DNA of 64,000 nt from Rhizophagus irregularis (Eukaryota), in assembly GCF_026210795.1 (NCBI RefSeq), contig NC_089433.1, positions 5,580,001 through 5,644,000 of the forward strand. Reading direction: 5' to 3'. The notes under the pieces were generated by a model. The model saw nothing but the letters and a program-made list of their open reading frames with translations. It had not been told where the DNA came from and did no database searches. Below are positions 14,714-63,399 of this stretch, in pieces. Position numbers and translations under genes: made by a program. Position 1 is the stretch's first letter, and the number at the start of each line of letters is the position of its first letter.

Positions 14714-14859
14714 TAGAGGTAGACTCTGAATCCGGTCAATCCGGATATCTGGTGATCCATCCGAAAATTAACCAGATTCAGATTGATCCGGATGATTCAT
14801 CGGATTGACCGGATGGATCATCAGATATCCAGTGATTTTTTTTTTTTTTTTAACAGTTT

Positions 14860-16735
14860 ATATTTTAGGTTCGGAGGACGGAAGACAGGCCACAGAAAAG
14901 GGTAAGTTTTTTTTTAACCTTTGAGCTTTTTTTATCTTTATTTGATTAGTTTCTTTTATTATAGGATACAATGGCACTACGAACTACAGATCTCAACAAT
15001 GAAAGTTAGGGTAAGTTTTTTTATTACTGTTCTTTTGTCTTTGGAACGTTACTATCATTCCTTTTTCTTTCTTTTCTTTAAGGAATGCTGATCTAGAGCT
15101 AGATTTATAAAGGTACGTTGGAATGAGTGTCATTTTGGCCATTAGAAACGTCATTAATGCTTCTTTTCTTTAGGGGGCATCTTTCTGGACCTAGGTTTCA
15201 GCTTGGGCTATAAATGTGAGTATAAACTTCTTTGTTTTTCGTCTTGAGAACGTCACTAACGTTCCTTTTACTTCATTTCTTTAGGGAACGCTTGTTTGGA
15301 CTTGGATTTCGATAAATGTGAGTATAAATTTCATTGTTTTTCGTCTTGGGAACGTCACTAACGTTCCTTTTATTCCATTTCTTTAGGGGACACGTGTTTA
15401 GACCTGGATTTTGGCTTGGATTATAAATGTGAGTATAAATTTCTTTGTTTTTTGTTTTGGGAACGTTACTGACGTTCCTTTTACTCCATTTCTTTAGGGA
15501 CACATGTTTATATATATATATATATATATATATCCTACAAACGAGATTAGGCAGTCTTACTGACAGTTAAAGTGTTAATAAATATATAGAAACCTCGAAA
15601 GTAACAACTCCCCAACCAGCCATGACGGAAATTAAACAAAGTATAGTAAAACGAGTTAGTTTAAAAGTGTTTGGACCTGGATTTCGGCTTGGGCTATGAA
15701 GGTGAGTTATGGGTGGGTTTTTTTGTGTTTTTTTTTGTCTTTGGAACGTCACTAACGTTCCTTTTACTCCATTTCTTTAGGGGACGCGTGTTTGGACCTG
15801 GATTTCGGCTTGGCTATAAAGGTTCTTCACATGTTCTTATACGATGATTGTTGTTATTTGTATCATTATTAGATGTGGACGTTTGTTGAACTGGTTGAGG
15901 TTGATGTGTGTTTGGAACTTTGGATCAATAACCACAACAATATTGCACAACAATACCCAAAGACAGAAACTATCTAGGTCTCAGAGAATAAGATCAAACA
16001 AATGGAGGAAATGTATAATGCGGTAACTACAAGTGTAAATGTCTTTGTTTTCCGTCTTGGGAATGTCACTAACGTTCCTTTTACTTTATTTTGCTTAGGC
16101 TATGAAGGTAAGTTATGGGTGGGGGTTTTTTTTTTGTTTTTTTTTGTTTTTGGAATGTCACTAACGTTCCTTTTACTTCATTTCTTTAGGGGACGCCTGC
16201 CTGGACCTGGATTTCGGCTTGGGCTATGAAGGTAAATTATGAGTGAGGTTTTTTGTTTTTTGTTTGTCTTTGGAACGTCATTAACGTTTTTTTTACTCCA
16301 TTTCTTTAGGGACGCCTGTCTGGACCTGGTTTTCAGCTTGGGCTATGAAGGTAAATTATGAGTGAGGTTTTTTGTTTTTTGTTTATCTTTGGAACGTCAT
16401 TAACGTTCCTTTTGTTTTTTTTTTCTTTAGGGGACACTTTCTTGAACCCAAATTTCAGCTTGGATTATGAAAGGTATGTTTGGAATAAGTAAATGTCACT
16501 TTTTTTTGTTTTGGGAATTAATAATATTTATTTTACTTTTTTTTTAGGGATGTTTCTTTGAACTTTGTTTTTTGCTTTGACTTTGAATTATAAGTTGAAA
16601 AAGAGGAACTTTATTTTTTGTTTGAGAATATTATTAAGGTTCTTTTTAAATGGTAAGTTGGGATGGGGTGAATTTCATTTTTATTTAAGAACATTACTAT
16701 AAATATTTCTTCTGATTTTTTTTTTATAGGCACCT
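14860..16735 (+). repeat. Micro-exon/intron-like tandem array B-left (mostly 42-nt exon units)
   Basis: Unit: cactaac..tttctttag|GGGACGCCTGCCTGGACCTGGATTTCGGCTTGGGCTATGAAG|gtaa/gtgag, about 14 units. Confidence 0.75.
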
Positions 16736-16972
16736 TAAATTTTACAAGGTCAATTAGAAAAAGGAAAAGATCAGTTTTGTAAAACAATCTTAAATAAAGA
16801 TAATCTATTTAAGTTTTTATTTTATCTAACTTTATTTGTTATTGATAATCAAAAAGTATTTGTAATTCAAATTACATGTAAAATTTTTTATTTTTTTTCT
16901 CACACTTTCTTCTTTTTCTTGTAAAAGAATTTTAATTTTTTACAATAATTTTTTATATATTTTCTTATAAAT

Positions 16973-19014
16973 ATGAGTTCAAGTTCTGTTGAAAATGATC
17001 AGAATAATCAAAATGATCAAGATTCCACTAAAAAAAAAAGAGGTGGATCTCAAAAAAAAAGTTGGGTATGAGAGTAGTTTGTATCTAATGATGGAATTAC
17101 TGCTATATGTCAAGTAGAAGTTATCTCAGGTGAAATATGTGGTAAAAAATATCAGCATAAAGGTTCAACAGGCATTTTGATAGATCATTTAAGTGGTAAA
17201 CATCAAATAACAAAAGAAACAACAAAGCAAAATTATGTGGTAAGAAATAATTGTAATTTAATTTATTTAAATTTAATAATTTACTAATTAATAATTTAAT
17301 AATCTTAGCCTCCAGAATTTCATGGGTTAAAAATTACACCACATAAGGAGTCTCGTCAAATCGAACTTCGTAATCTATTAATTAGTTGGATAATTTTTGA
17401 TACTCAACCTTTAAATATTACACATTCAAAATCTTTTCAAAGATTTATAAAAGAACTTGACCCAGCATTTAACATTCCAAATGTTAAATTAATTAAACAA
17501 ACCATCCAAAGTGCCTATAATTATACACTTCCTTTAATTCAAAAATTTGTTGAAAATAATGCAATTTCAATTAATTTGAGAACTGATATGTGGACTGGTA
17601 GAAACAGACAGGGATTTTTGGGTGTAGTAACTTGTTCTTTTTTAGATAAAAATTTCACCATTCATAAAGTTATCCTTACAATTGATATCCTCATACCGCA
17701 CAAAATATATTTGATGCATTATTTGTTATTCTAGATGAATGGGGTTTAAGAGATAAAACAAATGTAATAGTAACTGACAATGGTGCAAATATGAAAAAAG
17801 CCATAAAAGAAATGAATAATATTACATCTAATATAAAATGGCAGCCATGTACCGCCCATACTTTACAATTAGTGGTGGGAAAAGGTTTAAATTCAGTCAA
17901 ATTATTAGTATTAAGAGCAAAAAAACTAATTGATTTTTTTTTAAGACCAAAACAAAGTCAAAGATTAGAGGAAATTCAAAAAAAATCACAAAATCAAATT
18001 GATGTGGTAAGGATTTTAATTTTATAATTTATATTTATTAATTATTTAAATTATTTTTATTTATATAATAATTTTTATAATAATTAGAATGCTGGCAAAA
18101 CTAGCGAATATTTCCTTCAAATGGTTGCAGATATTTCCACTAGGTGGAATTCAACATACTATGCTTGGGATAGGTTAATTAAAATCAAAGGTTATATTCA
18201 AATTCTAATTGTAGAATTAGTAAATAATGAAAGTGATATTGATGCAAAAAAAGATGGAAAACAACTTGAAAAAATTATGTTAAGTTCTGATGAATGGGAA
18301 CTTTTACAACAATTAGTTATAACTCTTGGACCATTTGAAGAGGCAACTAATTATCTTGGTGGAGAAAAATATATTACACATAGCATTATGAATCCAGTAA
18401 TTGAACAAATTAAAACTTTATTACTTTTACCATTATCTAATTCACCTAGTTCATCTACACCTACGTCACCTACATTATCTACATTACCTGTAACAGCCTT
18501 TAATACATTAGAAATATATCAGGAAATTGAAAATGCAGCTGACATTTTTGTTTTAATAGAAGAAGTGGAAATTTTAGAAAATAATGTTGAAAATAATAAT
18601 AATCAAGCAAAAGAAGACAAAATTAATTTGGATAAACCGTTAGAAACTAAAGATCTTCTAGATCAAGTAAAAAAAGATCTTTATAATGCAATGTGTTTTT
18701 ATTGGAATGTTTTATCCGAAGATTATATAGTATCAACAATACTTGATCCCAGAATTAAGTCTATAAATAATAAAGTAAAAGGAGAGGAAATTTTACGTAA
18801 AAAATATGAAGAATATAAAGAAAATTATTTACCAACTCCCAATGAACTATTCCTGTATGTAACATCCACTCCTTCAGAAAGGTTATTTTCTGATGCAGGA
18901 AATCTACTTACAGCAAAGCGATCCAAAATGAATTCAGAACTTTTTAAGCATGTAATGTTTTTAAAAAGAAATGCAATTAAAGTTAATAATAATATTTATA
19001 ATATTTATGGATAA
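16973..19014 (+). pseudogene. hAT transposase (BED finger, RNase H-like core), disrupted
   Basis: SWV*E*F...C...C...GSTGHLIDHL; TDMWT; TDNGANM; CTAHTLQL; TRWNSTY; LDPR; TSTPSERLFS. Introns near 17240-17308 and 18007-18087. Confidence 0.92.
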
Positions 19015-19099
19015 TTATTTATAGTTTAAATTAATCAGTTATATAATTTATTATAATAAATATACTATTATTTTATTAAAATTATAAAACTTATTGTAG

Positions 19100-20790
19100 A
19101 ATCCTAAAACTAATAATTTTAAAGATTCCCATTCCTTAAAAAAGAAGCAAAGAGTTCCCAAATAAAGAAAAATAAAATAAAAATTCTTCTTTTCCATCTT
19201 ACAATTTAAAATCCAAACTAAAATTCAGGTCCAGGAAAGCATCTAAAGAAAAAAGAAAAAGAATGTTAATAACACCCCCAATGACAAAAATAAACAAAAA
19301 CATCCTTCTCCTAACTTACCTTCATAGCCCAAGCCAAAATCCAAGTCTCCTCTAAGATAAAAAAAAAGGAATGTTTATGACATTCATAATGACAAAAAAC
19401 AACAAAAGTCCCTCTTAAGTTAAGATCTAAGTCCGGGAAGACGTCTCCTAAAGAAAGAAGAAGGAACGTTAATGACGTTTCCAATGACTAAAAAAAAATG
19501 AAACCCTTACTCCTAACTTACAATTACAGCCCAAAGCCAAAAACCAGGCGTTCCCTAAAGAAAAAAAGAAGAAGGAACGTTAACGACGTTCCTAATGGCA
19601 AAAACAAATAAAAACCCCACTTACAAAGGTCCAGGCAGGCATCCCCTAAAGAAATGGAGTAAAAGGAACGTTAGTGACATTCCCAAGACGGAAAAACAAA
19701 GAAATTTACACTTGTAGTTAACGCATTATACATTGCCTCCATTTGTTTGATCTTATTCTCTGAGATCTAGCTAGTTTCTGTCTTTAGGTATTGACTGATT
19801 AGAGGAGAGTAGTTGTGACCATACGTATACTGTTGGGTTTTTTATATGATTTTGTGACAGGATCAGAAATTTGTTGTGCGATATTGTTGTGGTTATTGAT
19901 CCAAACACACATCAACCTCAACCAGTTCAACAAACGTTCACATCTAATAATGATACAAATAACAATAATCATCATGTAAGAACACGTGGAGAACCTTTAT
20001 AGCCCAAGCTGAAATCCAGGTTCAGGCAGACGTCCCCTAAAGAAATTGAGTAAAAGGAACGTTAGTGATGTTCTAAAGACAAAAAAAAACAAAAAACCCC
20101 CACCCATAACTTACCTTCATAGCCCAAGCCGAAATCCAGGGTCCAGGCGGGCGTCCCCTAAAGAAATGGAGTAATAGGAAGTTAGTGACGTTCCAAAGAC
20201 AAAAAAAAAACCCCCCACTCATAATTTACCTTTATAGTCAAGCCGAAATCCAGGTCCAAATACGCGTCCCCTAAAGAAATGGAGTAAAAGGAACGTTAGT
20301 GACGTTCCCAAGACAAAAAAAAACACAAAAAAACCTACCCATAACTCACTTTCATAGCCAAAGCTGAAATCCAGGTCCAAACATTAAACTAACTCGTTTT
20401 ACTATACTTTGTTTACTTTCCGTCATGGCTGGTTGGGGAGTTGTTACTTTCGAAGTTTCCATATATTTATTAATACTTTAACCGTCAGTAAGACTGCCTA
20501 ATCTCATTTGTGGGATATATATATATATATATATATATAAACACACGTCTTCTAAAGAAATGGAGTAAAAGGACAACGCTGCGACGTTCCCAAAACAAAA
20601 AACAAAGAAATTTATATTTACATTTATAATCCAAGCCGAAATCCAGGTCCAAACACGCGTCCCCTAAAGAAATGGAGTAAAAGGAATGTTAGTGACATTC
20701 CCAAGATGAAAAACAGAGAAAATTACACTTACCTTTTGAAATCCAAGTCGTCCAAGTTTAATTCCGAAGTCCAAGTTATAAGTTCAAACC
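19100..20790 (-). repeat. Micro-exon/intron-like array B-right, inverted copy of B-left
   Basis: Reverse complement of B-left units, with mirrored (TA)n at 15509-15533 and 20515-20539 and mirrored unique inserts. Confidence 0.75.
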
Positions 20791-21040
20791 CGTCCTTAAA
20801 GAAAAAAGTTTTTTTTTTTTTAAAAAAAAAAGCATAATATTAAAAAAAAATAGACCAGATTGGACCAGATTATCTGATCAATCCGGTCAATCCGGTCATC
20901 TATGTAACATCTGATCAATCCGATGTTATCCAATGGATCCATCCAGATTATTCACAATCCGTTCATTCCTAATCTGGATGATCCGTTTTTTGATCGAATC
21001 GGATGATGGATTGAACAGATTTTACCGGAGCACACCTCTA

Positions 21041-22024: not shown

Positions 22025-22395
22025 GAAACTGGGTTACGCACCATCAAAGCAGCGCGTCACCAAAACCGGGTTATGTGCCATCAAAACAGCGCATCACTGA
22101 AACTGGGTTACGCACCATTAAAATAGCGCATTACCAAAATCGGGTTATGCGCCATCAAAGCAGCACGTCACTGAAACTGGGTTACGCACCATCAAAGCAG
22201 CGCGTCACTGAAACTGGGTTATGCGTCATCAAAGTAGCGCATCACCGAAATCAGGTTACGCACCATCAAAGCAGTGTGTCACCAAAACTGAATTACGCGC
22301 CATCAAAGTAGCGCATCACCAAAACCAGATTACACACCATCAAAGCAGCACATCACCGAAACCAGATTACACACCATCAAAGCAGCGCGTCACCG
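22025..22395. repeat. 37-bp minisatellite, about 10 copies
   Basis: Unit gaaactgggttacgcaccatcaaagcagcgcgtcacc. Confidence 0.92.
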
Positions 22396-23305
22396 ATATA
22401 AATACTATAAAATAATTATTAAATATATATGTAAAGCCTAAATTGATTTACTTCGTAAAAAATAAAATTATATGGAATATATACTTTTATTAAAGCAATT
22501 ATAAATTACAATTTATATAATAATAATAAAACAAATATATAATTACTAGTTATTATTATTCATTTTACACCTATTTTACATTTTAATAATTTTTTATTTG
22601 CATGTATTTTTGACAAAGAAAATACAATAATATTAAGTTTTTTTTTTTACTTATAACTTAAAAATAACTGTTATATTTGCTTATAAATTTTTTCATTATA
22701 TTTAATAAAAGTGAATAGAAAAATAATAAAAAAATGATGGGCAGCTGAAAATCACCATGCGTTTAATTTTGATTATGTATCTCTCTTGACACAAGAAATA
22801 ATCTTTTTAATGGCATATATTATTGAAACAGATTCTTCAAAGCTGATAGTCTTCAGAGATCTTGAGGATCATAATGGATTTTCCTGTAATCAAATAATAC
22901 ATTGACGTTAAAAAATAATCTAATCTCAGAAGAGATACTAGACCAGAAACATTCAAAAATGTTGCTGACATAACTTATGCGAAAATAAGGTTTTTTCTAG
23001 TTGCTATGAAGAGAACTGGATTAAATTTCAACCAAGGCAATTAGTAATAGATTTCACTCTTGTCTAATTACTAATATTTTTCAATTTTATATAGATAAAA
23101 TCCTTATGAAAAGAGTTTGATCTATTAGGAAGTTTATTAAAATCAGTGAAGTATCCTTCCAAACAGAAAAAATCTTGAGATCTTGAGAATTCCATAAAAA
23201 TAAAATCGATTCCGCATCAATCATATGACTTGGTCAGAGAAACAGGAAGGGTTTGAAGGAAAATGAATGTAGAATTCAGCATGATCCCATTTTTTCCAGT
23301 GTTAA

Positions 23306-23845: not shown

Positions 23846-24818
23846 TTGCCTTTTCCGCTTTTACAACTATTTCCAAGGTTCACGAATGCCGAATGATCTA
23901 AAAAATGTAAAACAAAATAGATCAGCCCTAAAATCACTAAGTGGCTCATTGCAGATAGGAGATTTCTCCTATTAGCATACACTTCGCTAAACTATCTATC
24001 AAAATACAAATCTAAAACCTATGAGTGGCTCATTGCAGACAGGAGATTTCTCCTATTAGCACGCACTTGCTAAACAATCTTTCAATATATAAATCTAAAA
24101 TCTATGAGTGACTCATTGCAGACAAGAGATTTCTCCCTTTAGCATGCACTTCGCTAAACTATCTATCAAAATATGAATCTAAAACCTATGAGTGGCTCAT
24201 TGCAGACAGGAGATTTCTCCCATTAGTATGCACTTCACTATACTATTTATCAAATATAAATCTAAAATTATGAGTGACTCATTGCAGACAGGAGATTTCT
24301 CCTATTAGCACGTACTATCTACACTCTATCCTACCCATATTATAACGATAAACTATCAAGCATATTATAAGCTAAATTTAATTTACTATAAACTTCTTTA
24401 ACGGGCTGAGTAAACGACTTATAACAGATAGGAGAATGTCACCCTGTTAGCTCGCACTTACTATTTTCGTCATCTTTATTTACTTCCTGCGCGGATTTAT
24501 CTATATAATTATTAAAGGTTACTAAATAACAAATGAACTTTATCTTGAAAAACAAAATTAAAAGTACATGCCATTTATAAAAGTTTCCTCGTACTGCTTA
24601 GTTAACTTATTTACCATTAGTTTGCTTTGCATATATTTATTGTAATTTTTAAGTCTATTAATATCTTTCTGATGTTTAAGTTTAGATCTCTTTTTTTTCT
24701 TTTTTTTAATTTTCGAAACTGTTCCATTTTTTTCTCTTCTTAATATATTCTGTTTTCTGTCTAACGCCCGTTGTGCACTATTTCTCTGTTTTTTTGGCGA
24801 GTTATTTACCGTTACCAT
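23846..24818 (-). CDS. Lys/Arg-rich multi-exon hypothetical gene (3' end unresolved)
   Basis: ORF MVTVNNSPKKQR...FING followed by phase-compatible exons near 24500-24462 (DKSAQEVNKDDEN) and 23897-23846 (HSAFVNLGNSCKSGKG). The first donor would be GC. Confidence 0.4.
23930..24315. repeat. ~84-bp tandem repeat, 5 copies, with aggaga-tt-tctcct hairpin
   Basis: Unit agtggctcattgcagacaggagatttctcctattagcacgcacttcgctaaactatc...; degenerate copy near 24425-24460. Confidence 0.9.
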
Positions 24819-26108: not shown

Positions 26109-26832
26109 TACGATTATTCCGATTCAGACGAGAATGATCCAAATTTGATATCTAGTTTAAAGTCTTTAAAACTGCAATCATGCAATCGATCAAGTTTATT
26201 TTCTGCTGACTGAGTTATCAATTAAGTTTGTGGCTGATTGGGTGGGTCACTGGTTTGAGAATTTTTATATTAAAAGCCATCAAAAAGCACATGATAACCT
26301 TGACATTTTAAATATGCTCATAGTAATTACGTAAAAGTTCTACAAAAGGCCTACTTCTCTTATTAGCGTTAGACATATGTAATAAACTTCACGTGATTTC
26401 TTATCAATTTGTTGAATTTCTTTTTTTAGTATCATTATATCATAAATAATTTCGATGTAACTATAATATCTTATATAATAACAATTAACGATAAAGTTAT
26501 ATTTCTTTCTAATTATTCCAATTTCTAATGCAGTAGATTGAAGATTCAATTAACAATGACTTACTCAAACTGTACAAATATGAAGAATTTAAAAATGTTA
26601 TTAAGATATACGAAGGTCATTGCTTAGAAGTATACAGCGTGGTTTACAAAACTCATCATTTTGCGATAAAATCACTACTTTATGATAATGATAAATGCAT
26701 GAATGAAATGTTCTGTGAGGTTGTTATTGCATATTTTGCTGTTTATTTTAAGATAAATTAAAAAATTTTTTCGGCATTTATTTAGATTCAACTTTATTGT
26801 CAAGTGAATTACTGTTCTGTCTCAACAATATA

Positions 26833-29800
26833 CACTGGTCGAAATCATTTCTTTCGGCATTAATACCTTTTGTCAAAAGTTCATTATCGTCATCACGTGA
26901 TTTGTCACACATTCGGCTAATCACAAAAATCAGAAAAAGTTTGGCATAAAGATTTTTGGTCGATTTATGGTTGAGTTGTAATATAAAAAAAACCATAAAT
27001 CGACCAATACTTTTTTTTATCGATTTTTTATTAACAATGACAATCGACTTAAAACTTTTTTGACGATTTTTAACCAAATTTTTAATTAATTAATATCAAT
27101 AATATTTGACAATCAATTGTGCAATTCCGCAATTAGTCTGCAAATGTGGAACTGTAGCATTATTATAAACACATTTTACTGACAGTTTCTATCATATTTT
27201 TCAAAAAATGCATTTGAATTGGTAAAAAAATGCATTTTCGCAAATAAAGAAATCCAAATTCGGCCGGATAATTTGACAGATTATCCAATATCCATCAAAT
27301 TTTCTGGCCAAATCGCCTTTTTTTATCTTTTTTATCTTTTTAATTTAATTAATATAAAAATATTAATATTTAATATATATATTGTTTTTAAATTAATTAA
27401 TACATAAAAAAAAACACCAAAAAAAGGCATTTCGGCTGGATAATTTGACGGATTATCCAATATTTGTTGAATTATCCGGTTTATGACTGAATATTAAAAA
27501 AATCAAATCAGCCGGAACATCAATAACCGTCAAATTGACCGGCTGATCCATTTTTTTAAAAAAAATCGTTCTTTTTTAAAAATTATTAATGAAAAATGAT
27601 TTTTTTCTTTTACTTTAATGATAAGAAATAATCGTTTTCGATTAATAAGTTTAAAATTATATATTTTTTTGCAATTCCGCAATTTATCCGCAATTACGGA
27701 TTATTTGCCGCAATTACCTATTTGCAGCACCATCTTTAACGTGAGATTATCCAGATCAAGTTAAAAAAAAAGCATGTTTTTTTAATGTGGCTCCTTCACC
27801 TCTATCTATTTCTTTCTCCCTTTTTTCCTCTCTCTTATTTCGTTATTTCCCCTCCCTTATTTCGTTCTTTTCCTTTCTTTTGCCCTTATTCTTCTATTGG
27901 CGTTGATAGGAAAAAAATTTTTTTATTTGTATTTTTTTATTTTGTAGGTTTCGGCTTTTAGTTCTTGAGCTTTGGATATATGAAGTTTCGAAGTGAAAAC
28001 TTTGAAACTTTTTTTAAAAAAATTGTTGGATATATAGGTGAGTTTTGGAGTGAAAAATTTAAAACTCTAAAAAAAACTATTTTTTGTAATTTTTTCTTTC
28101 TTATATTTTGTAGGTTCTTTCGGTTATAGGGCTTTAGATATATGAGTGAGTTTCGGAGTGAAAACTTTGAAACTTTTTTTAAAAAAAATTATTAAATGTT
28201 TTTAATTTTTTTTTCTTCTATTTTGTAGGTTTCGACTTTCGGTTCTTGGGCTTTGGATATATGGGTAAGTTTCGAAGTGAAACTTCGAAACTTATTTTAA
28301 AAAAAAATTACTTTTTTAATTTTATTTTAATTTTCTTTTTCTATTTATAGGTTTCGACTTTCGGTTGGGCTTTAGATAAATAGGTGAGTTTCGAAGTGAA
28401 AGAATCGAAACTCTTTAAAGAATAATTTTTTTAATTTTTTTTTTTATTTTGTAGGTTTCGACTTTTGGTTCTTGGACTTTAGATATAAGGGTAAGTTTTG
28501 AAGTTAAAACTTCGAAACTTTCTTTTAAAAAGTATTTTTTTAATATTTTTATCTTCAATTTTGTAGATTTTAGCTTTCGATTATTGGACGTTGGATATAT
28601 GGGTAAGTTTCGAAGTAAAACTTCGAAACTTTTTTTTTAAAAAAATATTTTTTTTAATATTTTAAATTTTTTATCTTCAATTTTGTAGATTTCAGCTTTC
28701 GATTATTGGCGTTGAATATATGGGTAAGTTTCGAAGTTAAAACTTTGAAACTTTTTTTTAAAAGTAATTTTTTTTAATTGTTTCTTTTTCTATTTTGTAG
28801 ATTTCTTTCAGTTCTTGGGCGTTGGATATATAGGTGAGTTTTGAAGTGAAACTTCAAAACTTTTTTTTAAAAAAATATTTTTTTTAATATTTTAAATTTT
28901 TTATCTTCAATTTTGTAGATTTCAGCTTTTGATTATTGGGCGTTGGATATATGGGTAAGTTTTGAAGTTAAAACTTCGAAACTTTTTTTTAAAAGTAATT
29001 TTTTTTAATTGTTTCTTTTTCTATTTTGTAGATTTCTTTCAGTTCTTGGGCATTGGATATATAGGTGAGTTTCGAAGTGAAAGAATCGAAACTCTTTAAA
29101 GAATAATTTTTTTAATTTTTTTTTCTATTTTGTAGGTTTCGACTTTCAATTATTGGGCATTGGATATATGGGTAAGTTTTGAAGTGAAACTTCGAAACTT
29201 TCTTTTAAAAAAATATTTTTTTTAATATTTTAAATTTTTTATCTTCAATTTTGTAGATTTTGGCTTTCGATTATTGGGCGTTGGATATATGGATAAGTTT
29301 CGAAGTTAAAACTTTGAAACTTTTTTTTAAAAGTAATTTTTTTTAATTGTTTCTTTTTTCTATTTTGTAGATTTCTTTCGGTTCTTGGGCATTGGATATA
29401 TAGGTGAGTTTCGAAGTGAAAGAATCGAAACTCTTTAAAGAATAATTTTTTTAATTTTTTTTTCTTCTATTTTGTAGGTTTCGGCTTTTGGTTATTGGAC
29501 GTTGAATATATTATATGTAAGTTTCGATCAGAATGAAAGAATCGAAACTTTTAAAAAAAAATATTTTTTAATTGTTTCTTTATTCTATTTTGTAGATTTC
29601 GGCTTTCGGTTCTTGGGCGTTGGATATATAGGATAGGTGAGTTTTGAAGTGAAAACTTCAAAACTTTTTTTAAATAGAATTATTTTTTTTAGTTATTTTT
29701 TAATTTTTTTCTTCTATTTTGTAGGTATCGGTTTTCGGTTCTTGGGCATTAGATATACGGATGAGTTTCGGAGTGAAAACTTCGAAACTTTTTTTTTTAA

Positions 29801-30841
29801 AAAAATATTTTTTTTTTTAATTTATTTTAATTTTTTTTTTCTTTTTTGTAGGTTTTGACTTTCAGTTCTTGGGCTTTGGATATGTGGGTAAGTTTCGAAG
29901 AAACTTTGAAACTTCAAAACTTATTTTAAAAAAAAGATATTTTTTTAATTTTATTTTGATTATTTTTCTATTTTGTAGGTTTCGACTTTCGGTTGGGTTT
30001 TGGATATATAGGTAAGTTTCCACTTCGGATTTTTGGTTGGGTAAGTTTCGAAATATTTCGAAACTTAAATTTTTTTTATTAAAGAATTGGTTTACTAACC
30101 GTTTCTTTATTTTTTTTTGTAGATTTTCCTTTGGACTTCTATTGAATGGGTAGGTTTTGAATCTTCAAAACTTTGACCTTTTATTATTGTAATAATAACG
30201 GTTTACTAACCATTTCTTTATTTTTTTTTTGTAGGTTTCTCTTTCTTCATCTTTTTTGTCAGATAGAGTAAGTGATAGATAATTTTGGATGAGTGGATGA
30301 TGGTGGACGATGGTGGACGATGGATGGTGGATGATGGGTAGTAGACGATGGATGTGGAGGATGGTTGACAATGGTTGACAATGGATGGTGAATGGTAAAT
30401 GGTGAATGGTGGATGGTGGATGGTAGGTGTAAATAGACAGATACTGTAGAATGTATATATTAGATATTTAATATGATAATTTTTAATATGTAATTTTAAT
30501 AAAGCGAAATAATAAAATTTAATCAATTGATTGTTATTACAAAATTAAAAATAAGCTAAATACATAAAATTATTAACAATTAGACAAAATTAGACTTAAT
30601 TTCATCCAACATTCGGCAATTTGAAATTTGGACGAATGTCTAGTAAAAGTTGACGAATAGTTTATTTCCGATTTTTTAATGAATTTTGCCGATTTGTGAT
30701 TGCCAAGTGGCAGGCGAAGTGTGCAAATCGTCCATAATAACTTTGACGATTTTTTTGGCAATGATCAGCTGAATTTAAACCAACTTTCGTCCAACATTCA
30801 TCAATTTGAAATTTGGATGAAATGGACTATTCTGACCAGTG
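26833..30841 (+). mobile_element. Non-autonomous CACTA/CMC-like element (CACTG ends, 3-bp TSD)
   Basis: ata|cactggtcgaaat ... attctgaccagtg|ata. The paralogous kinase near 52080-52098 shows the empty site. Confidence 0.9.
27940..30240 (+). repeat. Micro-exon/intron-like tandem array A (~20 units, ~115-bp period)
   Basis: ttttgtag|GTTTCGACTTTCGGTTCTTGGGCTTTGGATATATGG|gtaagtttcgaagtgaaacttcgaaactt. CT-rich leader at 27790-27900, (tgga/tgg)n tail at 30287-30425, aataaa near 30500. Confidence 0.85.
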
Positions 30842-32055
30842 ATATGGAGTGACTAGAAAAGGTATATTAAATTAATTTTAAAAAAATAAAAAATTTCATT
30901 AAATTAACATTTAAATTATAAGGAAAGGATAAGCCATTTTCCTTAGTATTGGAATTTGCAGAAAATGGGGAAATGATTGAGTATTTTCAAAATAGTCGTC
31001 AAACTATTTATATGGACGATTTTGTAAATATAATTGTACAAATTACGAGATTAATATTATATTTGCATGAAGAAGATATTTTTGGCATCAATATTGTATG
31101 ATAATTTCTTATAAAAATTTGCATATTATTTTAAATCAATTATTATTAAATTATTCTGATTTTCAGAGTTCCAATATTTTACTTGATAAAAAGGGAAGAG
31201 TTAAACTGTTAAGTTTGGAGCTATCAAATAGAATTTTAAAAAGTTTTCAAAGCAAAAATCAAGATATTATTGATTTTGGATCCATTTTTAAAGTTATTAA
31301 GTTTAAGGATAGAGAATATAACAAATTACTTAAAGGTAATGAATTTACTTATTATTAATTTTTATAATTATTGTACTAATCATACCAACATTATTGTGAC
31401 AGATTGTATAAATACTAGAAGGCTAGAAGATTGTATTAATAGGTTGGAATCTATGGGTCGATCTACTAAAGGTAAATGATGTAATTTATGACTATTATTA
31501 GTTCAAAAGCTAATTAATTTATGAATAGGACAGAAAGTCGAAATTGTCGTAGTGAAAAAATGAAAAAAAACATCTAGTATATTTTATAATGTATTAAGTC
31601 ATAAAAATCTAAAGTATAATAATAAGAATAGTATCGCATTTAAAGTTAAATTGAAATGAACGGAAAGCATTAGCAAAAGAGTAAAAAACCAACATATTGA
31701 AATGAAATGAAAAAAATAATACAAATGTAATTATTTGATTTAGTTAATATATGATGACAACGATTATAAGTTTGAAATTAGGCAAATATTAAATTTAAAG
31801 CACAATGCAATACAATGCAATCAACACAGTAGATTCAAAATAATACTTTGATTAATAATACAATCAGTAATGTAAAAACACTTGTTTTTAAGTATAGTAC
31901 ATAAATAAGATATATTACTTAAAGGAAAAATAAGTTGCGGAAATTACCCAGTTATTATGACAATTTTTTAATAAACGTAATTATCAAGCAATATAATTGC
32001 ATTGTTCATTATGTATATAAACTTAGTTATTTTCAGAAATGTAAAAATACATCAA

Positions 32056-32316: not shown

Positions 32317-32695
32317 TAAATAACAAAGAAAATTTTGTTTAGCAGAAAAATTTATTGTATAGAATTTTTTTAATTATAAATATTATGTTTGGGGAAAAAA
32401 ACGGATTCGTTTATATTATAATTTATGTAATTGTTAGAAAACTATCACTATAAAGAAACGATTATAATATTTTGATGCTTTGATACTACCGATCAAATAT
32501 GGAAATATTTAGTTTATCACTTAGAAATAGGTGTAAATGTATCAAATTTGGTTGTAACTGCGTGTGATTTAAAACTAAAAAGTAAAGAAGTCATATTTCA
32601 ACTGACCGCAGCATTGATCTTTGCTGCGCAATGAAATAAAATATAAATATACTAATCGTGATACATTATTTTTTTTCTTTTTAGTTTAAAAGAAG

Positions 32696-33613
32696 ATGTC
32701 TTCACTTGGTGTTTGCAATATTAACAATAAATTTTGTGGTTGCCAAACTTATATGGAAAACGATAATAATCCAGGAAAATGTTTTTATTGCAATCATTTT
32801 AACGCGTTTCATACCGGGTTTTCCATTTTGTTTCGAAATTCTTCAACGCCATTTTTGGGAGCTTGCCAAAAAGAGGGAGCTTCATGTGGATGTCAAGCTT
32901 TTTTCGCTGTTCCTAATGACCGATTGAAATGCAAATATTGTGATCATTTTTCTGCACTTCATAAGATGACTTTTCCAAATAGTGTTTCTAGTTTGTCCGA
33001 ATCTATCAACAAAAAGTCTGTGGGCATTATTAGAAGGGAGGGAAATAAAATTTTAACTACAGGTCATCCCAAAAGCCAATCACTTACTCTTAACAATATA
33101 TTATTGTTTTTTAAAGATAGTTGGAAAAATAAATCAGCTCCAAGAAAAAATACTTCGACTTGGAAAAAAATGAAGAAAAGAGGTTTAATTATTGAACGAG
33201 TAACATTTAATAAGGATGATATTAAAAATTTTAATACTAAAATTGTTAGTTTATTTCAAATTGATATTGTTGCGAATAATATCATTATATTAAAAGGTAC
33301 TAAAGGTGAATTTAAATCTTCAATTTGTCAGGTAAAAATTATTTAATATTGGGTTCTAAATTAACAGTTTATTTTTTATATTTTAATTCTTATTTTGTGT
33401 TGTGTTTTAGAATAAAACATTAAAGAATTTGAGATCAAATATATCAAAAAGCAACAGAAAATTGTATCTTGGTAATTACATTTTTAGTTAGCATTTCTTT
33501 TTAATAATGTATTGATATTTATTAATCATGTTGCTTTAACAACAATTTTAGCATTGGTAGATAATTCCAATGACGAGTCTTCTGTGATGAATATCAAAAA
33601 CTTGATTAGTTGA
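32696..33613 (+). CDS. Cys/His-rich tandem zinc-module protein, paralog A (exons 32696-33331, 33411-33471, 33552-33613)
   Basis: Two C-x6-C-x-C-x12-C-x2-C-x-H-x4-H modules. Intron positions and exon 2 (NLRSNISKSNRKLYL) are shared with paralog B. Confidence 0.85.
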
Positions 33614-39985: not shown

Positions 39986-41027
39986 TCAATCAGTGTTTTC
40001 GCTTTTAATTTCAGAATATTTATCTTGATTATTATCCGCTTCTGCTTCACTAGATTTATCTGAGGTCAGAGCTAAAATTGATAAAAGTAAATTATTAAAT
40101 ATGTTATTTAAACAAAAAGCAATATTATTATAATTGTGATTACCAAGGTATAATCTTTTGTTGCTTTTTGACATATTTTCTCTAAAATTCTTTAAAGATT
40201 TTTCCTAAATCACAACATCAAATTACGAATTATAAAAATATTTAAATATATTTTAAGCTAGTAAAAATTTATATAATTACCTGACAGGTAGCAATTTTTA
40301 ATTTACTTGCAGAATCAGCGTTTAATAAAATCCAATTATCTTCATTAACGGAAGGAAAAGAACGGGTAATTAAATCATTAATAGCTTCAGAAGTATTTTC
40401 ATTAAATAATACATTTTCTATAATGAATCCATTATCTCTCATTTCAATCCAAGCTGAAGTATTTTCTCTTGGAGCTGAATTATTTTCCCAACTTCTTTGT
40501 GTAAACAATATTATGTGATTAAGATAAAGTGAAACGTTAGCAGGTCGACCTCTAGAAGCAACTATACTAGGTGAATTGTGATTCTGAAATTTTGACTGAT
40601 TTCTTTTCCTCTTTTTAGTAATCGGCATATGTCTATTTTTAATGGCTTCTTCTCTTAACCTAGAATCTCCAGAATTATTAATACTTGATGTTAATAAGTA
40701 TGATGGCAAATTACTTTCAATATTAATTGAGCCAGGAACGATACTTGGTGAGGTATTCTTGTGAAATGCAGTAAAATGATCACAATATTTGCATTTCAAT
40801 TCGTTATTAGGATTAGCTAAAAAAGCTTGACATCCACAGAAAACTCCATCTTTTTGACAAGCTCCTAATAATGGCGTTGAAGTATTGTGAAGTGCAGGAG
40901 AAAAACCGGTATGAAACGCATTATAATGATGGCAATAATAACATTTCTCTGGATTATTCTCATCTTCTTTATAAGTTTGACAACCACAATATTTATTGTT
41001 AAAATTACAAACACCAAGTAGGAACAT
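39986..41027 (-). CDS. Cys/His-rich tandem zinc-module protein, paralog B (exons 41027-40281, 40204-40144, 40071-39986)
   Basis: Same two Cys/His modules, the SAPR.NTS.W..M...G.IIE.V.FN motif and the same two introns as paralog A. Confidence 0.85.
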
Positions 41028-41854
41028 TTTTCCTTAAACAAAAGAAAAAAAGAAAGAAATTCTTTGTACAATCGTTTGTTAAAGATATATTTATACTTTT
41101 AAGTAATAAATACGCATTCAGCAGATTGCAAAACTGTTAATAATGGTGGCATGGTCCGAAATATGGATTGGCGCAGTGGAAATCTGAATTGCAAATGCAT
41201 ACTGAATTGCCTTAATTGCAAACATTCCTTGTGAAAATGGAAAAACTTGTTTATTTAAAACCATATAAATTAGCTTTCATATGTTTTAGAAAAAGATGGT
41301 ACATTTAAGACAATAATGATGAGGGCAAAAGACTTAGAAAACGTCTGATTAGTGCTTCACTTACTGAATTGACGCGTCTCTTAATCAACTACTAAAAAGC
41401 AATTATGAAGCTAATCTTCTATTGACCTCAAATTAGAAACATTTGGTGATTAGAGCTCTGAACGGGTCAGGTAGGGTCAGGTAATTGACTTAACCCGACC
41501 TGTCTCATTTTTTTCAGATCGGATTAAGTGTCAACCCAAATATAAAAATAACTTGACCTGACCCGATCCAACCTGACCTGATTTTTATTAAAAAAATTTT
41601 TTTTTTTTGACCTTGCTGTTATTATATTTTATGTTGTATTTTATTACTAAATAAAAAAACCATAGAAATCATTTATGATATATAAAATGATATCAATAAC
41701 AATGCTAATTAGTTAAATTTTATACAACTGGAAAAATTTTATTATTAATAACTGTAAATTTTAATTCCCCCCTCACACACATACTACGGCCTGTTCAGCT
41801 TTCTGAGTTATCCCAAGGCCATTTTCTAAAAATTAAAAAGAAAGAAAACGTTAA

Positions 41855-44800
41855 CACAGGTCGAACAGATGTCATTGTCGCAAAATTTGCCTGGAATTTT
41901 TCTGGCAAATTGAGAATTATCCCAGTAAATTAGGGTAAATTGTGTTACAATTTTGGGATAATGTAGGTCTTACAATTTGGCAAATTTTGTCAAAATGGCG
42001 GAATTCCTACAAATGTTCCAATTCAAATGTTGAGAAATTTTTCAGTAAATTATCATTAAATTGTGGGAAATTTTAGGCAAATCTTTAGTAATGATATGCA
42101 AACGAAGTGCAAATTGTGGTGAATTTAGTTAAATTTTTAGTAATTTTATGCAAACGTAATGTAAATTGTGGTGAATTTTAGGCAAATTTTTAGTAATGCT
42201 ATGCAAACGAAGTGCAAATTGTGGTGAATTTTGTTAAATTTTTAGTAATTTTATGTAAACGTAATGCAAATTGTGGTGAATTTAGTTAAATTTTTAGTAA
42301 TTTTATGTAAACGTAATGCAAATTGTGGTAAATTATAGTGAATTTTTAGTAATTTCATGCAAAAGTAATGCAAATTGTGGTAAATTGTAGTGTATTTTTA
42401 GTAATGTTATATAAATTGTTGAAAATTTAGGTGAATTTTTCAGCAATGTTGTGCAAACGTAATACAAATTGTGGTAAATTTTGCATTTTTTCGGTAAATG
42501 TTAGCTAAACTTTTGATAATTTAGTGAAATTTAGGATAATTTCGGACAATTGAGTGAAAATGTTTTACTGATTTTGGACAATTGAGTGTAAACGGTATAA
42601 ATGCAACATTTTCGGAGATAATTTAGTGAAATTTTGGACAATTGAGTGAAATTTAGTAATAATTTTAAACAATTTAGTGTAAACGCCATGACAATTTAAA
42701 ACACTGTTTTAATAATTTCATATAATTTATTATAATTTTATTTATTAATAAATGTACAATTATTATTATTTAACGATAATCTATGGATAATCTGCACCTC
42801 TAATTCATTCATGTATCAAATGTCCAGTGCCAAAGTAGAAGCCGGTGTAAACCTAAAAAAAAAAGAAAAAAACGAAGCGTTAATAAACATTTCGTTGAAA
42901 AAATCAAAATAAAGAAACATTTCGAAGTATATACCTTCGAACTGTTAAATTCCATATGTTCAAGGACCATTGAACCTAAAAAATAAAAAAATGAAACATT
43001 AATATACGTTTCGTTGAAAAAATAAAAAAAATAAAAAAATGAAACATTAATATACGTTTCGTTGAAAAAATCAAAATAAAGAAACATTTCGAAGTATATA
43101 CCTTCGAAATGTTAAATTCCATACGTTCAAGGACCGTTGAACCTAAAAAATAAAAAAATGAAACATTAATATACGTTTCGTTGAAAAAATCAAATTAAAG
43201 AAACATTTCGAAATATATACCTTTCGAAATGTTAAATTCCATATGTACAAAGACCGCTGAACCTAAAAAATAAAAAAAAAATGAAACGTTAATATACGTT
43301 TCGTTAAAAAAAATCAAAATAAAAAAAATATTTCGAAGTATACCTTCAAAATATTGAATTCCGGTTTGTCCAATGAGCCGCTGAACCTAAAAAAATATAA
43401 AAAAAAATGAAACATTAATATACGTTTCGTTGAAAAATAAAAAAAATATTTTGAAGTATACCTTCGAAATGTTTCCCTTTTCCCTTTCGTTTCACCCTTC
43501 CCTTTCATCTTCTCCTTCACCTTTCGTTTTCGTTCTCAACTTTCTCTTTCGTTTTCTCCTTTCCCTTAAAGAAACAAAGAAAAAAGAAAAAAATTTTAAT
43601 AAATATAAACAAAATAACGAAATTTCTCTAATTCCCTTTACCTTATTACCTTCCACCCAAAGCCTGGTTCGTGAATTCGTTCCGGCGTTCCTACAATAAA
43701 AGAAAAAAAAATAACGTTTAAAACGTTACTAAAAAAAGCACTAAACTCCCCTCTACCCTATTACCTTTCACACAAACAAAGTCCGGTTCGTAATTTCGTC
43801 CGGAGTTCCTACAAAAAGAAGAAAGAAATGTTAGAAACGTTTCCTTACAAAAAATAATTAAAAAAAAAATTTTTTTTTTTAAAGTTTTGAAGCGAAACGC
43901 TTCGAAACTTACCACATTTTACCGATTCGGAATATTGGAGCACGGACCTATAAAAAAAAAAGAAAAAGAAATGTTAAAACGTTTCTAAAAAATTAAAAAA
44001 GAAAGAACTCTTCAAACTTTTTCTCCCAAATACCTTCAAGTCCGGTTCGTAAAAATTCATCTGGCAATTCCTACAAAAAAAACAAAAAATAAAAAAAAGA
44101 AACGTTAAGAACGTTTCTAAAATGCAAAAAAAATTGAATTATCTCTCTTTCTTTCTTTAATTATCCAAAGACCTTTCGTCCGGCGTTCCTATAAAAGAAA
44201 AAAGAAACGTTAGAACGTTTCTTAGTAAAAAATAAAATAAAATCAAGTTTCGCAGCGAGACGCTGCGAAACTTACCATATTTTATCGATTTAGAATATTG
44301 GAGCACAGAACCTACAAAAAAAGAACATTAGAAAGTTCCTTTAAAAATCAAAAAAAATAAAAATAAAGTTTCGTAACGAAATATTCGTTACGAAACTTAC
44401 CATTTCGCCGTTTCGGATCCTTGGAATACCAAAACCTACAAAAAAGAATAAAGAACGTTAGTATTTAGTAACGTTCCTTTTAAAAATAAAAAAAAAGAAT
44501 CGAAGTTTCAAAACGAAACTTTGAAACCTAACCGAAATCCAAGATCGGAAGGAATCCAGAGTGTATCTACAAAAAAAGAAGAAACATTAGCTAACGTTTC
44601 TTAAAAAAATTTAATAAAATTAAGTTTCGCAACGCAACGTTGCAAAACTTACCGGTTCGTTTCGATTCCATCATCCAAACGTCTGGCGTTTCTACATAAA
44701 GAAAAAGGAAACTTAGAAACGTTTCTTTACAAAAATTAAAAAAAAAAAATTAAAAAGTTTCAAAGCGAAACGCTTCAAAACTTACCATTTTCGTTTCCTC

Positions 44801-46789
44801 GTTTCCTAAGTCAAAAATACTGAAAGACTTAAAAAAAAAATAAAGGATCATTAAAAAAAATGATCCTTATAAAAGTAAAAAAAAAAAATTTATTTTAAAG
44901 TTTCGAAGCGAAACGCTTCAAAACTTACCATAATTTCAGTTCGTTTCCCAAAGTAAAAACATCGAAAATCCTACAAAAAAGAAAGAAAGGAAACGTTAGA
45001 AACGTTTTCTTGCAACAAAGATTAAAAAAAAAAAAAAATTAAAAAAGTTTCGAAGCGTTTCGCTTCGAAACTTACCATAGTTTTTCTGAAAGACGGTTCC
45101 GGGAAAGAGAAAGGGAAAGGGGGAAGGAGTGGGGATCGAAAAGAGAAGGGAAAGGGCGGAGGGGAGAAGGGGAGAAAAGAGGGAAGGTGAAGGTGAGAGA
45201 AAGAGGGAAGGAGAAAAAAGAGGGAAGGGGAAGGTGAGAGAAAGTAGAAAGGTGAAGGTGAAAGAAAGAGGGAACGGGAAGGTGAGAGAAAGAGGAAAGG
45301 GGAAGGTGAAAGAAAGAGGGAAGGGGAAGGTGAGAGAAAGAGGGGAAGGAGAAGGGCGAAAGAAAAGAGAGGTAAAGGTGAGAAAAAAAAAATTAAGCTT
45401 TTGCTAAAAAAGCTTAATTTTTTTTTCGTTATACTGCAGCCGAAGCTGCGGTAATTATTAAGTAATATCACGTGACGCACGTGATATATAATTTTATATA
45501 AATAGGGGCTTTCCCCCGCCCCAGAAATTTTTTTTTTTTATTTTAATAATTTTAAATAGATGTATATATATGCTTATATATACATATATATATATCTATT
45601 AACTAATACTTTACGAAAAGCCCTCCTCTGTAAACAGGTAGAGGCCATAAAGTACCTATAGGGGGAGAGCCATTGCTGCTCCCTCCGCCTGTTTATAGTG
45701 ACAAAAAGAGGGAGTCTTCAGTAGTAAGGTTTAGTACTAAATTAAACATCACAACACATCGTGTTGATACATTGTTTATATTAACAATGTGATTTAATGT
45801 TAAATAATTCATTTAGAATATAAATATTATAAATTTAATAATGTTCGTAATTTACAAATAAATAAAAATAAAAATTAACAATTTTAATGTAATTAAGTGT
45901 AATGCTACGTTATCCAGTGTAATTGTAGTATTTTTTTTGTGTTTTTTAGCGCAATTCCGTGTTTTTTAGTGCAATTCCGCATTTTTTAGTGCAATTTCAC
46001 ATTTTCCAGTATAACGCAAAATTTTCTAAAAAATATAATAATTGTGGTACTTTTTAGTGTAATGCTACATTGTCTAGTGTAATTGTGGTATTTTTTAGTG
46101 CAATGCCGCATAATTTAGTATAGTGCTACATTTTTTAGTATAATTTAATGTAATGTGGAATTTTCCAAAAAATGTGATAATTGTAATGCTTTTTAGTGTA
46201 ATTTGGTGAAATGCTACATTTTCCAGTGTAATGCCATATTATTGAGCATTTTCAAAAAAAAATGTAACATTTTAATATTCTGACAAAAGTGAAACATTTG
46301 ACCAAAAAAACATAAAATTTGCTGAAAATATGCAACATTTGACAGAAAATATAGAATTTTCATAAAAAATATACCATTTGCCAGAAAATTGGAATATTTG
46401 ACAAAATTTGATTTTAATTGACAATGTTACAACAATTTTATGAAATGTTGTTACAATGATGTCACATTGGAGATAAAATGCAGCATTTTCATAAAAATGC
46501 ACCATTTGCAAGAAAATTGGAACATTTGACAGAAAAAAAGCAAAATTTGATTTTAATGACAATGTTATAACAATGTCATAACAATGTTACGAAATGTTAC
46601 ATTTGAGGTGTAATGTAGCATTTTCCCAAAATTTCATAAGATTTGCTAAATCGGACAATGTTGTAACAATGCTATTCCAAAAAATTGCTCAGCGTAATGT
46701 AGCATTTTCCACAATTTCCCACCATTTTCCAGGAAAATGGGGAATTTGCATTTTTTGAATTTTGGACAATGGTGCCCCTTCGACCTGTG
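41855..46789 (-). mobile_element. Non-autonomous CACTA/CMC-like element (CACAG ends, TAA TSD) nested in hAT 3
   Basis: taa|cacaggtcgaacagatgtcattgtc ... gacaatggtgccccttcgacctgtg|taa. Degenerate subterminal repeats at 41880-42700 and 45890-46760. Confidence 0.88.
42845..45390 (-). repeat. Micro-exon/intron-like array C (~18 units, variable exons)
   Basis: On +: cttac[34-42 nt]ctacaaaa recurs with gttag (branch point, rc ctaac). CT-rich leader on the minus strand at 45100-45390. Confidence 0.85.
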
Positions 46790-58745: not shown

Positions 58746-58869
58746 ATTTAATTAATTTAATTTATCAATTGTATAATTACTTGTGTAAGGTATTTAAATA
58801 CATTTTGGCTATTGTACGTGATTTATATTTGAATGCAATCCATAGCGAATCAATTTTTTTTAAAAAATA

Positions 58870-61439: not shown

Positions 61440-63399
61440 GATCCGCTTTTCTTTTCGCAACCAACTCTTATCCTTTTTTATTTCTTTTCCCCTTACTTTT
61501 CATACCGAATTAGTTAAATTTTACTTGTGTGATATATCCCGATTTCAATCTCTATTTGCGAATAAGAGGAAGAAAAGGAGTTGCGTAAAAACGTGAAGCG
61601 GGTAATGGACGTTATTGTTGAATTATTAAAGGATAGGATAGATGTTGAGAAGGAACCAGCGATGAAAAGGCAACGGGTTCAGGGTACAGTATTTCGAAAA
61701 ACAGGAGGATTAATCGTGTATACAGTCCCCGATTGATACTGATGTGATCATTTCCATTTTAATGTTAAAAATAAGCTATCCGAATTTAAGCTTTTTTTAA
61801 CTTTCACTAAAAAAAACTTTTTTTTTATCTTTTTTATTCCGAAAGTTTCTGAAGTTTCCTTTACTTCGGAAACATTTTTTTTTATCTTTTTTATTAGGGA
61901 ATCGGCTCCAAAGTGGATAGCCGAATTCCAAGGTAAGTTTCGAAAATAATCTTCGAAACCTTTAAAAAAAACGTTTCTAACTTTTTTTTATTTCTTTTTT
62001 GTAGGAATCGGCTCCAAAGTGGATGGCCAAATTCCAAGGTAAGTTTCAAAAATAATCTTCAAAACCTTTAAAAAAAAACGTTTCTAATGTTTTTTTTTAT
62101 TTTTTTTTGTAGGAATCGCTCCGATGTGGATAGCCGAATTCCAAGGTAAGTTTCGAAACTAATTTTTGAAGCTTAAAGAAAAAACGGTTTTAACGTTTTT
62201 TTATTATGATTTTGTAGAAATCGGCCCAATAAGGAAGGAATCCGGTGAGTTTTCGAAGTTGGACTTCGAAAACTTTTAATAAAAACGTATACTAACATTT
62301 TTTATAATTGTTTTTGTCGGAAACCGGCTATAACGTAGATACCGGAAGTCTACTGAAGATAAGGAAACTGGCCCATCTTGGATACCAGAATTCCAGGTAA
62401 GTTTCCGAAGTTATTTTTTCGAAAACTTTAAAAAACGTATCTTAACTTTTTTTATGACTTTTGTAGGAAATCGGCTCCTAATATACCGAATTCCGTGGTA
62501 AGTTTCGAGATTTAATTCAGAAAACTTTAAACTAACGTTTCTAACGTTTTTTTTTATTTCACTTTTGTAGGAAATCGGCTCCGGCGTGGAATCCAGAATC
62601 CAAAGTGAGTTTCAAAAATAATTTCGAAACTTTTTTTTTTAAAAAAAAAACGGTTTTAACGTTTCTTTCATTTCTTTTTTATAGGAAACTGCTTCGGCAT
62701 GGATAATCAGCAGGTAAGTGTTAGGGGGTTTTTAAATTATTTTTAAGAAACGTTCTAACCATGATCACGTTATGTTGTAGTACAAATTAAGAAAAGTTCG
62801 AGCGAACTTTTCTTAACCATGATCACGTTAAGTTTCTTTCTTTAATTTTATAGGTTTCGGCTTCTTTAGGCGTGAGTAATCAGTAGATGAATGTTTATAG
62901 GGAAGTTTCGAAATTATCTATAAGAGACATTCTAACATTTCTTTCTTTAATTTTGTAGGTTTCGGCTTTTATGGGTGGATATGAGGTGGATCGGTGCAAA
63001 AAAAACTGCATAGGGATTTTTGGTGGATTTTGGCAGGGTTTTTTGTAGATTTTTAATAGGTTTTTTTTGGAGGGTTTTGGATGAGTTTTTTGGTAGGTTT
63101 TTGGGTTTTGGTGGGTTTAATTTGCTAATTTGTATCATTTTTTACAAAATATGATTTTAATAAAAATATTTCAAAATATTTCAAAATCTGTAATATCAAT
63201 TTGCTAAATCGTAATGTTGATTTTGTTAAATCGGAATTAATTCAGAATGTTGATTTGTAATGATTTAGTTCCGAATTTATATTCCGATTTGCTGCCAATC
63301 GGAACTTTTTAAATTCGGAACTTTTAACCCAAAATCGACCCAAAATCGACCTAAAATCGGACATCCGATTTCCAGCCGATTGCACCATTTTGACCGGTG
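61440..63399 (+). mobile_element. Probable third CACTA/CMC-like element; right TIR only
   Basis: Ends attttgaccggtg (rc caccggtcaaaat, compare cactggtcgaaat) after tcgga/aatcg subterminal repeats. Left TIR not found. Confidence 0.55.
61890..62990 (+). repeat. Micro-exon/intron-like array D (~10 units)
   Basis: ttttgtag|GAATCGGCTCCAAAGTGGATGGCCAAATTCCAAG|gtaagttt..., with introns of the type gtaagtttcgaaaataatcttcgaaac..aaaacgtttctaac. Exons 27-35 nt. Confidence 0.85.

Follow-up and report, generated by a model that had tools for sequence, protein, structure and literature searches.

Here we analyse a 64,000-nucleotide stretch of Rhizophagus irregularis contig NC_089433.1 (positions 5,580,001 to 5,644,000 of the forward strand; RefSeq assembly GCF_026210795.1), hereafter the window, and in particular a DNA transposon, element A, whose cargo is a run of exon-like units alternating with intron-like spacers (array A). 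An earlier note, made from the sequence alone, had described the whole cargo as laid out like a spliced transcript, had reported the same layout in five further arrays of the window (B-left, B-right, C, D and E), and had proposed a mobile, heavily spliced non-coding RNA module. We find that these arrays share an intron design with, usually, two predicted hairpins, and that their splice signals stand in order on one strand. Element A comprises the following features.

26833..30841, plus strand: element A, a non-autonomous DNA transposon of 4,009 bp with CACTGGTC terminal repeats, a 3-bp ATA target duplication and EnSpm/CMC-type ends
27790..27900, plus strand: pyrimidine-rich leader (87% C+T), a predicted first exon; RNA depth is only 1-3.5, with differing letters
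27948..30267, plus strand: array A, 20 exon-like units of 27-41 nt with intron-like spacers of 71-111 nt (the first 133 nt)
28229..28264, plus strand: exon with junction reads at its acceptor (19 poly(A) reads of run X21)
28265..28350, plus strand: type intron, with a hairpin over the donor, a worn second hairpin, a T tract and TAG (predicted fold -19.9 kcal/mol, z -4.9, equalled by 0/200 shuffles)
30268..30520, plus strand: G-rich tail with AATAAA signals at 30498 and 30511

Element A and its array

Element A has the CAC..GTG terminal inverted repeats and 3-bp duplication on which EnSpm calls rest (PMC12730594). It holds no long open reading frame (ORF), and joining its flanks yields no long frame either. 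The outline drawn by the earlier note, a 4-kb CACTG element with CT-rich leader, G-rich last exon and AATAAA, was borne out, and the 20 acceptors, spaced about 120 nt apart, agree with its count of about 20 units; it gave exons of 32-41 nt and introns of about 80 nt. Donors, which it took to be almost always retained, are intact as GT in 17 of the 20 units and lost in three; the donor of the first unit is gone through deletion. Exons carry stops, as the note had said, in 7-9 of the 20 in each offset, and its statement that their lengths are non-triplet fails in array A: among the 19 exons whose donor position is clear, 16 have a length divisible by three, and more than one separate 3-nt insertion or deletion is present.

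Neighbouring exons inside one array are copies of each other, and the repeat of array A has undergone internal duplication and shows higher-order periods. The predicted donor hairpin is present in most of its introns, and the branch hairpin is worn in most of its units. With three donors lost, CpG decay and a worn branch hairpin, array A looks like a decaying copy. In an 18-unit alignment anchored on the acceptors, acceptor conservation proves nothing.

The element sits between fragments at 26300-26832 and 30845-31530, which we take, by eye, to be kinase-like; a Pfam match is absent for 31071-31355 beside it.

The intron design recurs in metagenome loci with unrelated exons

A search with the donor-hairpin motif matched 30 metagenome loci, which form 16 groups at 90% identity, and had zero matches in viral or prokaryote contigs; the array A exon motif had zero matches in metagenome contigs. 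At least two sense-strand intron candidates were found in 29 of the 30 loci and, under a strict branch-plus-YAG pattern, at least two units in 22. The loose metagenome parser over-calls units, and unit counts were taken from the stricter patterns. One of the 30 loci (L008) was set aside as a bacterial-looking chance match. Among the matches listed, metagenome exons are mostly unlike those of array A and the intron design is retained; this common design, combined with unrelated exons, occurs in 15 metagenome groups and two transposon superfamilies. As the intron is kept and the exon is free, selection on splicing or on the intron is most likely.

Most metagenome contigs are too short to reach element ends, and only a few loci connect the arrays with transposons beyond the window. 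L005 terminates in CACTGGTC, the same terminus as element A. In L028 (588-5790), two convergent arrays flank a small inverted-repeat core and their arms are complementary at 77-90%, an arrangement of foldback type also seen in element B. On the minus strand of L025, two tandem arrays lie upstream of a TET/JBP dioxygenase gene on the same strand (ORF 711-2189), and ESM Atlas agrees with the identity of its protein. The words Rhizophagus and Glomeromyc- are absent from the main text of a paper on TET-bearing fungal transposons (PMC12730594). A further locus, L011, carries a kinase whose best named matches are from Rhizophagus (75-79%); on this likeness, L011 at least derives from a related fungus. 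We also observed, in L005, L007, L014 and L017, runs of 40-55-nt units with an acceptor and exon-like text and no donor, resembling stacked alternative last exons.

Splice signals stand in order on one strand

We tested the splice signals with anchors that exclude the signal under test, using 16 representative loci together with the window arrays. Units within a locus are related and are therefore not independent draws; the pattern holds across unrelated exon families. From branch palindromes, anchored without reference to AG or GT, the first AG was a YAG lying 14-32 nt on in 90 of 105 cases (mode 25 nt), compared with 3 of 16 in the antisense control, from which L028 was excluded because it has arrays on both strands; the remaining 53 kb of the window contained two branch-plus-YAG units on both strands together. 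A donor-like site followed 12-62 nt past the acceptor in 71 of 90 cases, against 108 of 727 antisense segments. Of 76 donor-type hairpins, anchored without GT and with seed matches excluded, 53 had a donor either immediately ahead of the stem or within the loop (antisense, 2 of 76). Donor letters agree with the U1 consensus and the signals are near consensus; donor, branch site, pyrimidine tract and YAG thus stand in the order of U2-type introns on one strand. In the window arrays, splice-type signals are confined to one strand in each. A blind parser found 10 chains of at least three exon-intron units in the window, the longest with 10, and in the control a single chain of three arose once in 40 shuffled strands. 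Exonic AG and +5G seemed to trade off against each other at donors, which was discarded as an artefact of the score threshold.

Pooled exon lengths show no frame (remainders modulo three 23/18/25 of 66, p 0.55), so that the earlier claim of non-triplet lengths holds for the pooled arrays. Stops are fewest in offset 2 of the pooled exons (9 of 66, versus 17 and 20). Two protein searches did not find a spliced repeat protein, returning only an unspliced read-through model, P0001.

Two predicted hairpins lie on the splice signals

Array introns carry two palindromic predicted hairpins that the earlier note had not noticed: one over the donor and, usually, a second at the branch site. The donor hairpin starts just inside the intron or, in array C, holds the GT in its loop; in the second, which contains the branch site, the branch A lies at the foot of the 3' arm. 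In predicted folding of nine window introns, five beat all 200 shuffles, and the B intron, which has no donor hairpin, was not among these five. The median folding z was -2.0 for array A introns (n=18), against -0.3 to 1.8 for five predicted ordinary introns of the window, which have no CpG and lack the two-hairpin design. Forty metagenome introns gave z -3.0, a biased value because they were picked for having a branch palindrome. No Rfam family matched at gathering score, and three weak matches lay far below it.

The donor stem co-varies. Across 38 distinct non-seed donor hairpins, three inner stem positions were paired at a rate of 0.78, compared with 0.51 +/- 0.04 for shuffled partners (0/5000), and with one row per left triplet (n=14) the values were 0.67 and 0.37 (0/5000). 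The paired triplets are of six kinds, and four of these recur in different loci. Palindromes can also be perfected by template switching in DNA. The CpG observed/expected ratio is 1.7-2.4 in arrays A, C, D and E, compared with 0.32 in the hAT gene and 1.04 in the window.

Exon-to-exon joins in RNA reads

Three raw-read runs carrying the same species label and one DNA run were aligned to 27600-30700 at 90% likeness; 15 of 58 joints, many of them from the DNA control, and 24 of 454 rows of loose ends were listed. Each poly(A) run contributed about 630 reads. Because these are mostly 90-95% alike and overlap the stretch partially, we take the majority to stem from further copies or from T-rich introns in unrelated genes. 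In run X21, 19 reads start to match at the acceptor G 28228 and carry ahead of it a 12-letter consensus where the genome has intron. These letters equal the last ones of exons 28567, 28919 and 29257, which belong to a different exon type, so that the reads show the exon-to-exon join expected of splicing, the sole direct evidence of it. They probably come from family copies, and their strand is not readable.

The two strongest RNA joints seen, 29720->30212 and 29709->28009, join T-rich intron ends and were set aside as reads of other genes that cross-match here. Behind 28259 there are exon-like loose ends (22, 23 and 16 reads in three runs); their placement failed and they were not counted.

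With four ordered signals on one strand across unrelated exon families, no common frame and no spliced repeat protein in two protein searches, and, thinly, with 19 exon-to-exon reads, the units are supported as spliceosomal introns in a non-coding, transposon-borne module.

Other arrays and elements of the window

14714..21040, no strand assigned: element B, with TAGAGGT ends (14714, 21040), a hAT transposase near 16973-19014 and long inverted arms; no matching target duplication
14870..16800, plus strand: array B-left, inward-pointing, with a branch-site hairpin and AATAAA ahead of the transposase start
19150..20800, minus strand: array B-right, the inverted counterpart of B-left, likewise inward-pointing
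41855..46789, minus strand: element C/D, with CACAGGTCGAA ends and a TAA duplication, holding arrays C and D
about 42850-43470, minus strand: array C of element C/D, with the donor in the hairpin loop and AATAAA after the array
about 43600-45110, minus strand: array D of element C/D
45111-45385, minus strand: leader of element C/D (94% C+T)
61898..63200, plus strand: array E, which has a G-rich tail and AATAAA; a CACCGGTC terminus lies at 63399, and the opposite one was not found

Arrays are held both by CAC-ended carriers (A and C/D) and by a hAT carrier (B, around its transposase), as the earlier note had it for CACTA-like and hAT elements. The recurrence of the full layout stands in part: the arrays exist, each on one strand, with a CT-rich leader measured in arrays A and D only and a G-rich tail visible in A and E only. 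AATAAA lies downstream of the last unit at 11 of the 11 array ends examined, a motif frequent by chance in AT-rich DNA. Part of the hAT transposase (18088-19011) has 91-94% identical matches named R. irregularis.

In element B, a possible further intron at 16800-16975, after the B-left AATAAA, could lead into the hAT start codon, in which case the B-left array may also serve the transposase mRNA as a 5' leader with many introns. Matching non-array segments at 15505-15990 and 19740-20543, which include a TA microsatellite and are 94-96% complementary, interrupt both B arms, which suggests recent copying or conversion between the arms. Just outside element C/D, at 47160-47394 (minus strand), lies a short extra chain, absent from the arrays of the earlier note, with exons of about 20 nt, GTAAG donors and introns of 82-92 nt; it is near hAT-like fragments (48146-50605) and is matched by metagenome locus L018. 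An inverted gene pair (32669-33486 and 40129-41054, about 80%) encodes a small cysteine/histidine-rich protein without a Pfam match. Other tandem repeats lie at 22025-22396, 23928-24310, 42058-42410 and 58854-59202 (periods 37, 84, 52 and 61 nt), and the exon-intron parser found no chains in these four.

A proposed splicing cassette and its possible purpose

We favour, tentatively, the reading that the runs of short exon-like and intron-like units carried by these transposons are probably transcribed and spliced into non-coding RNA, the repeated splicing itself likely marking the element as gene-like so that it would escape silencing. Put more broadly, and with the same reserve, several superfamilies of DNA transposons in arbuscular mycorrhizal fungi may have in common an undescribed cargo, a cassette for splicing in which 10-25 micro-exons alternate with two-hairpin introns; its sole job would be to load spliceosomes and steer the host between treating the element as a gene and as a target of RNA interference (RNAi) or methylation. 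Its parts differ in strength: real splicing in some copies is very probable, and an anti-silencing purpose would be less than half as probable as that. Arrays would grow by tandem duplication of one exon-intron unit; selection would act on the intron and the act of splicing, leaving the exon text free; the two hairpins would tune spliceosome assembly at the donor and the branch site; and the element might, we conjecture, gain protection from RNAi and CpG methylation.

R. irregularis is described as having both RNAi and CpG methylation of transposons (PMC8647823), and introns are reported to counter silencing of mobile DNA in human cells (PMC8770142). The anti-silencing reading is favoured by this human-cell precedent, by the near-consensus signals, by the CpG richness of arrays A, C, D and E, and by the selfish gain that escape would bring; the L025 array upstream of a TET/JBP gene also speaks for it.

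Several observations weigh against it. CpG decay in the stems has no preference for changes that keep a G-U pair on the sense strand (11 vs 8; 20 vs 22), so the hairpins are not established as RNA structures, and hairpins that bury splice signals suit a stalling role equally. CpG enrichment does not follow the arrays closely, being only 0.77 in the B arrays and 1.81 in the array-free left arm of element A. The earlier note had expected GT to be better conserved than adjacent bases, and this failed within array A: the donor G differs in three of 18 aligned units and many adjacent columns are invariant, so that array A alone cannot separate function from recent duplication. In the RNA, the junction row occurs in X21 only, among the 24 of 454 loose-end rows listed, and no RNA-supported GT..AG joint is among the 15 of 58 joints listed; 44 of 47 reads at exon 28229..28264 differ from the array A locus, many reads also span intron positions, and an intron-less DNA copy could yield identical junction reads.

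The absence of strand bias in stem decay accords with a role at the DNA level, in which dense arrays of CpG palindromes, one forming the core of each arm, are bound by a protein that the transposon encodes, either a transposase or an anti-silencing factor (VANC-like or TET-recruiting), and the splice signals would do no more than clear the palindromes out of any transcript. VANC targets are described as arrays of motifs in one orientation, lying in tandem repeats within the introns of transposons (PMC5735166), and a TET/JBP gene adjoins the L025 array. We nevertheless consider this unlikely: the inner stem letters change together with pairing held, the inner length of 7-18 nt is better suited to a folded single strand than to a fixed duplex site, and both hairpins lie exactly on splice signals.

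The hairpins might instead delay splicing; RNA held up on spliceosomes would then supply the production of small RNAs, in a self-limiting or host-co-opted arrangement like that of SCANR in Cryptococcus, where poorly spliced transposon RNAs template small interfering RNA (PMC5851062). The predicted pairing of donor and branch site, the many reads over intron positions and the report that 41% of Rhizophagus small-RNA loci lie in unannotated DNA (PMC8647823) all accord with stalling. It is quite unlikely in our judgement, given that the signals are near consensus rather than weak, that the arrays are CpG-rich and that an element gains little by triggering its own silencing.

If the excised introns were the product, each host transcript would release 10-25 two-hairpin RNAs of about 80 nt, as stable lariats or small RNAs, in the manner of small nucleolar RNA (snoRNA) host genes. 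An intron design kept while exons diverge, and introns that fold better than their shuffles, would be expected of such a system. We regard it as clearly improbable, with no Rfam family at threshold, local stems of about 8-15 bp in place of a whole-intron hairpin, and conservation that falls on the splice signals themselves.

Very improbable is a neutral origin, in which slippage multiplied a captured, ordinary exon-intron unit and template switching perfected its palindromes, with no current function. The internal duplication of array A, its donor losses and CpG decay without strand bias agree with such a history; the recurrence of the design with unrelated exons, and the lack of folding excess or CpG in five predicted ordinary window introns, do not. 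Least credible is a gene whose micro-exons encode a repeat peptide, of 11-12 residues and varied by skipping of symmetric exons: the triplet bias and 3-nt indels of array A and the low stop count in offset 2 are set against frame-random pooled lengths, stops in every offset of array A, and protein searches that gave only the read-through model.

Comparison with known systems

The carriers resemble non-autonomous EnSpm/CMC and hAT elements with internal tandem repeats, having CAC..GTG ends and a 3-bp duplication in A and C/D and a hAT transposase in B. Unlike ordinary repeats of those elements, the repeated unit here is a complete exon-intron with donor, branch site, pyrimidine tract and AG, and it occurs across superfamilies. 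Many short exons are also found in snoRNA host genes and in Schistosoma micro-exon genes, and for host genes it is the introns, more than the exons, that count. In contrast to both, the arrays have no detected snoRNA family or shared frame, and they are mobile. A snoRNA or microRNA host gene was rejected for want of an Rfam family in the introns at gathering score, and a micro-exon protein gene for want of a single open frame, array A alone being triplet-biased.

Spliced non-coding RNA from fungal transposons is also described in Blumeria hordei, where antisense long non-coding RNAs are proposed regulators of transposons. Those average 2.3 exons, with fewer than 1.9% having more than five, and are antisense to transposon genes (PMC10648671), whereas the Rhizophagus arrays have 10-25 micro-exons, stereotyped hairpin introns and a cargo of their own. 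VANDAL elements of Arabidopsis share dense same-orientation motif arrays formed by tandem duplication in non-coding transposon DNA, but VANC motifs are described as fixed 8-9-bp duplex sites of one family (PMC5735166); the Rhizophagus stems co-vary and sit on splice signals.

Introners, introner-like elements and symmetrical sister (stw)introns are likewise families of similar structured spliceosomal introns (PMC9860276; PMC8469720). Those introns insert singly into unrelated host genes, whereas the array introns are tandem inside transposons and duplicated with their exons. All copies seen were tandem in arrays, and the design is missing from five predicted introns of genes in the window. We rejected an introner identity, in which the intron is the unit of mobility among unrelated exons, as array exons are copies of their neighbours.

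A literature search, with supplements, subscription papers and Repbase outside its scope, found no description of such arrays, and they are not mentioned in the accessible text of four papers on Rhizophagus or fungal transposons checked by keyword (PMC11075540, PMC10234402, PMC8647823, PMC12730594). Published Rhizophagus repeat libraries or Repbase may hold the elements as consensus sequences. We rate splicing of the module as probable and its function as something that we infer.

Unclassified repeat is reported to make up about 30% of R. irregularis genomes (PMC11075540), and six arrays in one 64-kb window suggest that the module may be a sizeable part of it; the two-hairpin intron design offers a motif for classifying such repeats. 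Human cells and Cryptococcus give opposite answers to the question whether splicing marks a transcript as self or as a target for silencing. A mobile cargo that consists of little else than splice signals covered by co-varying hairpins would offer a natural experiment for that question.

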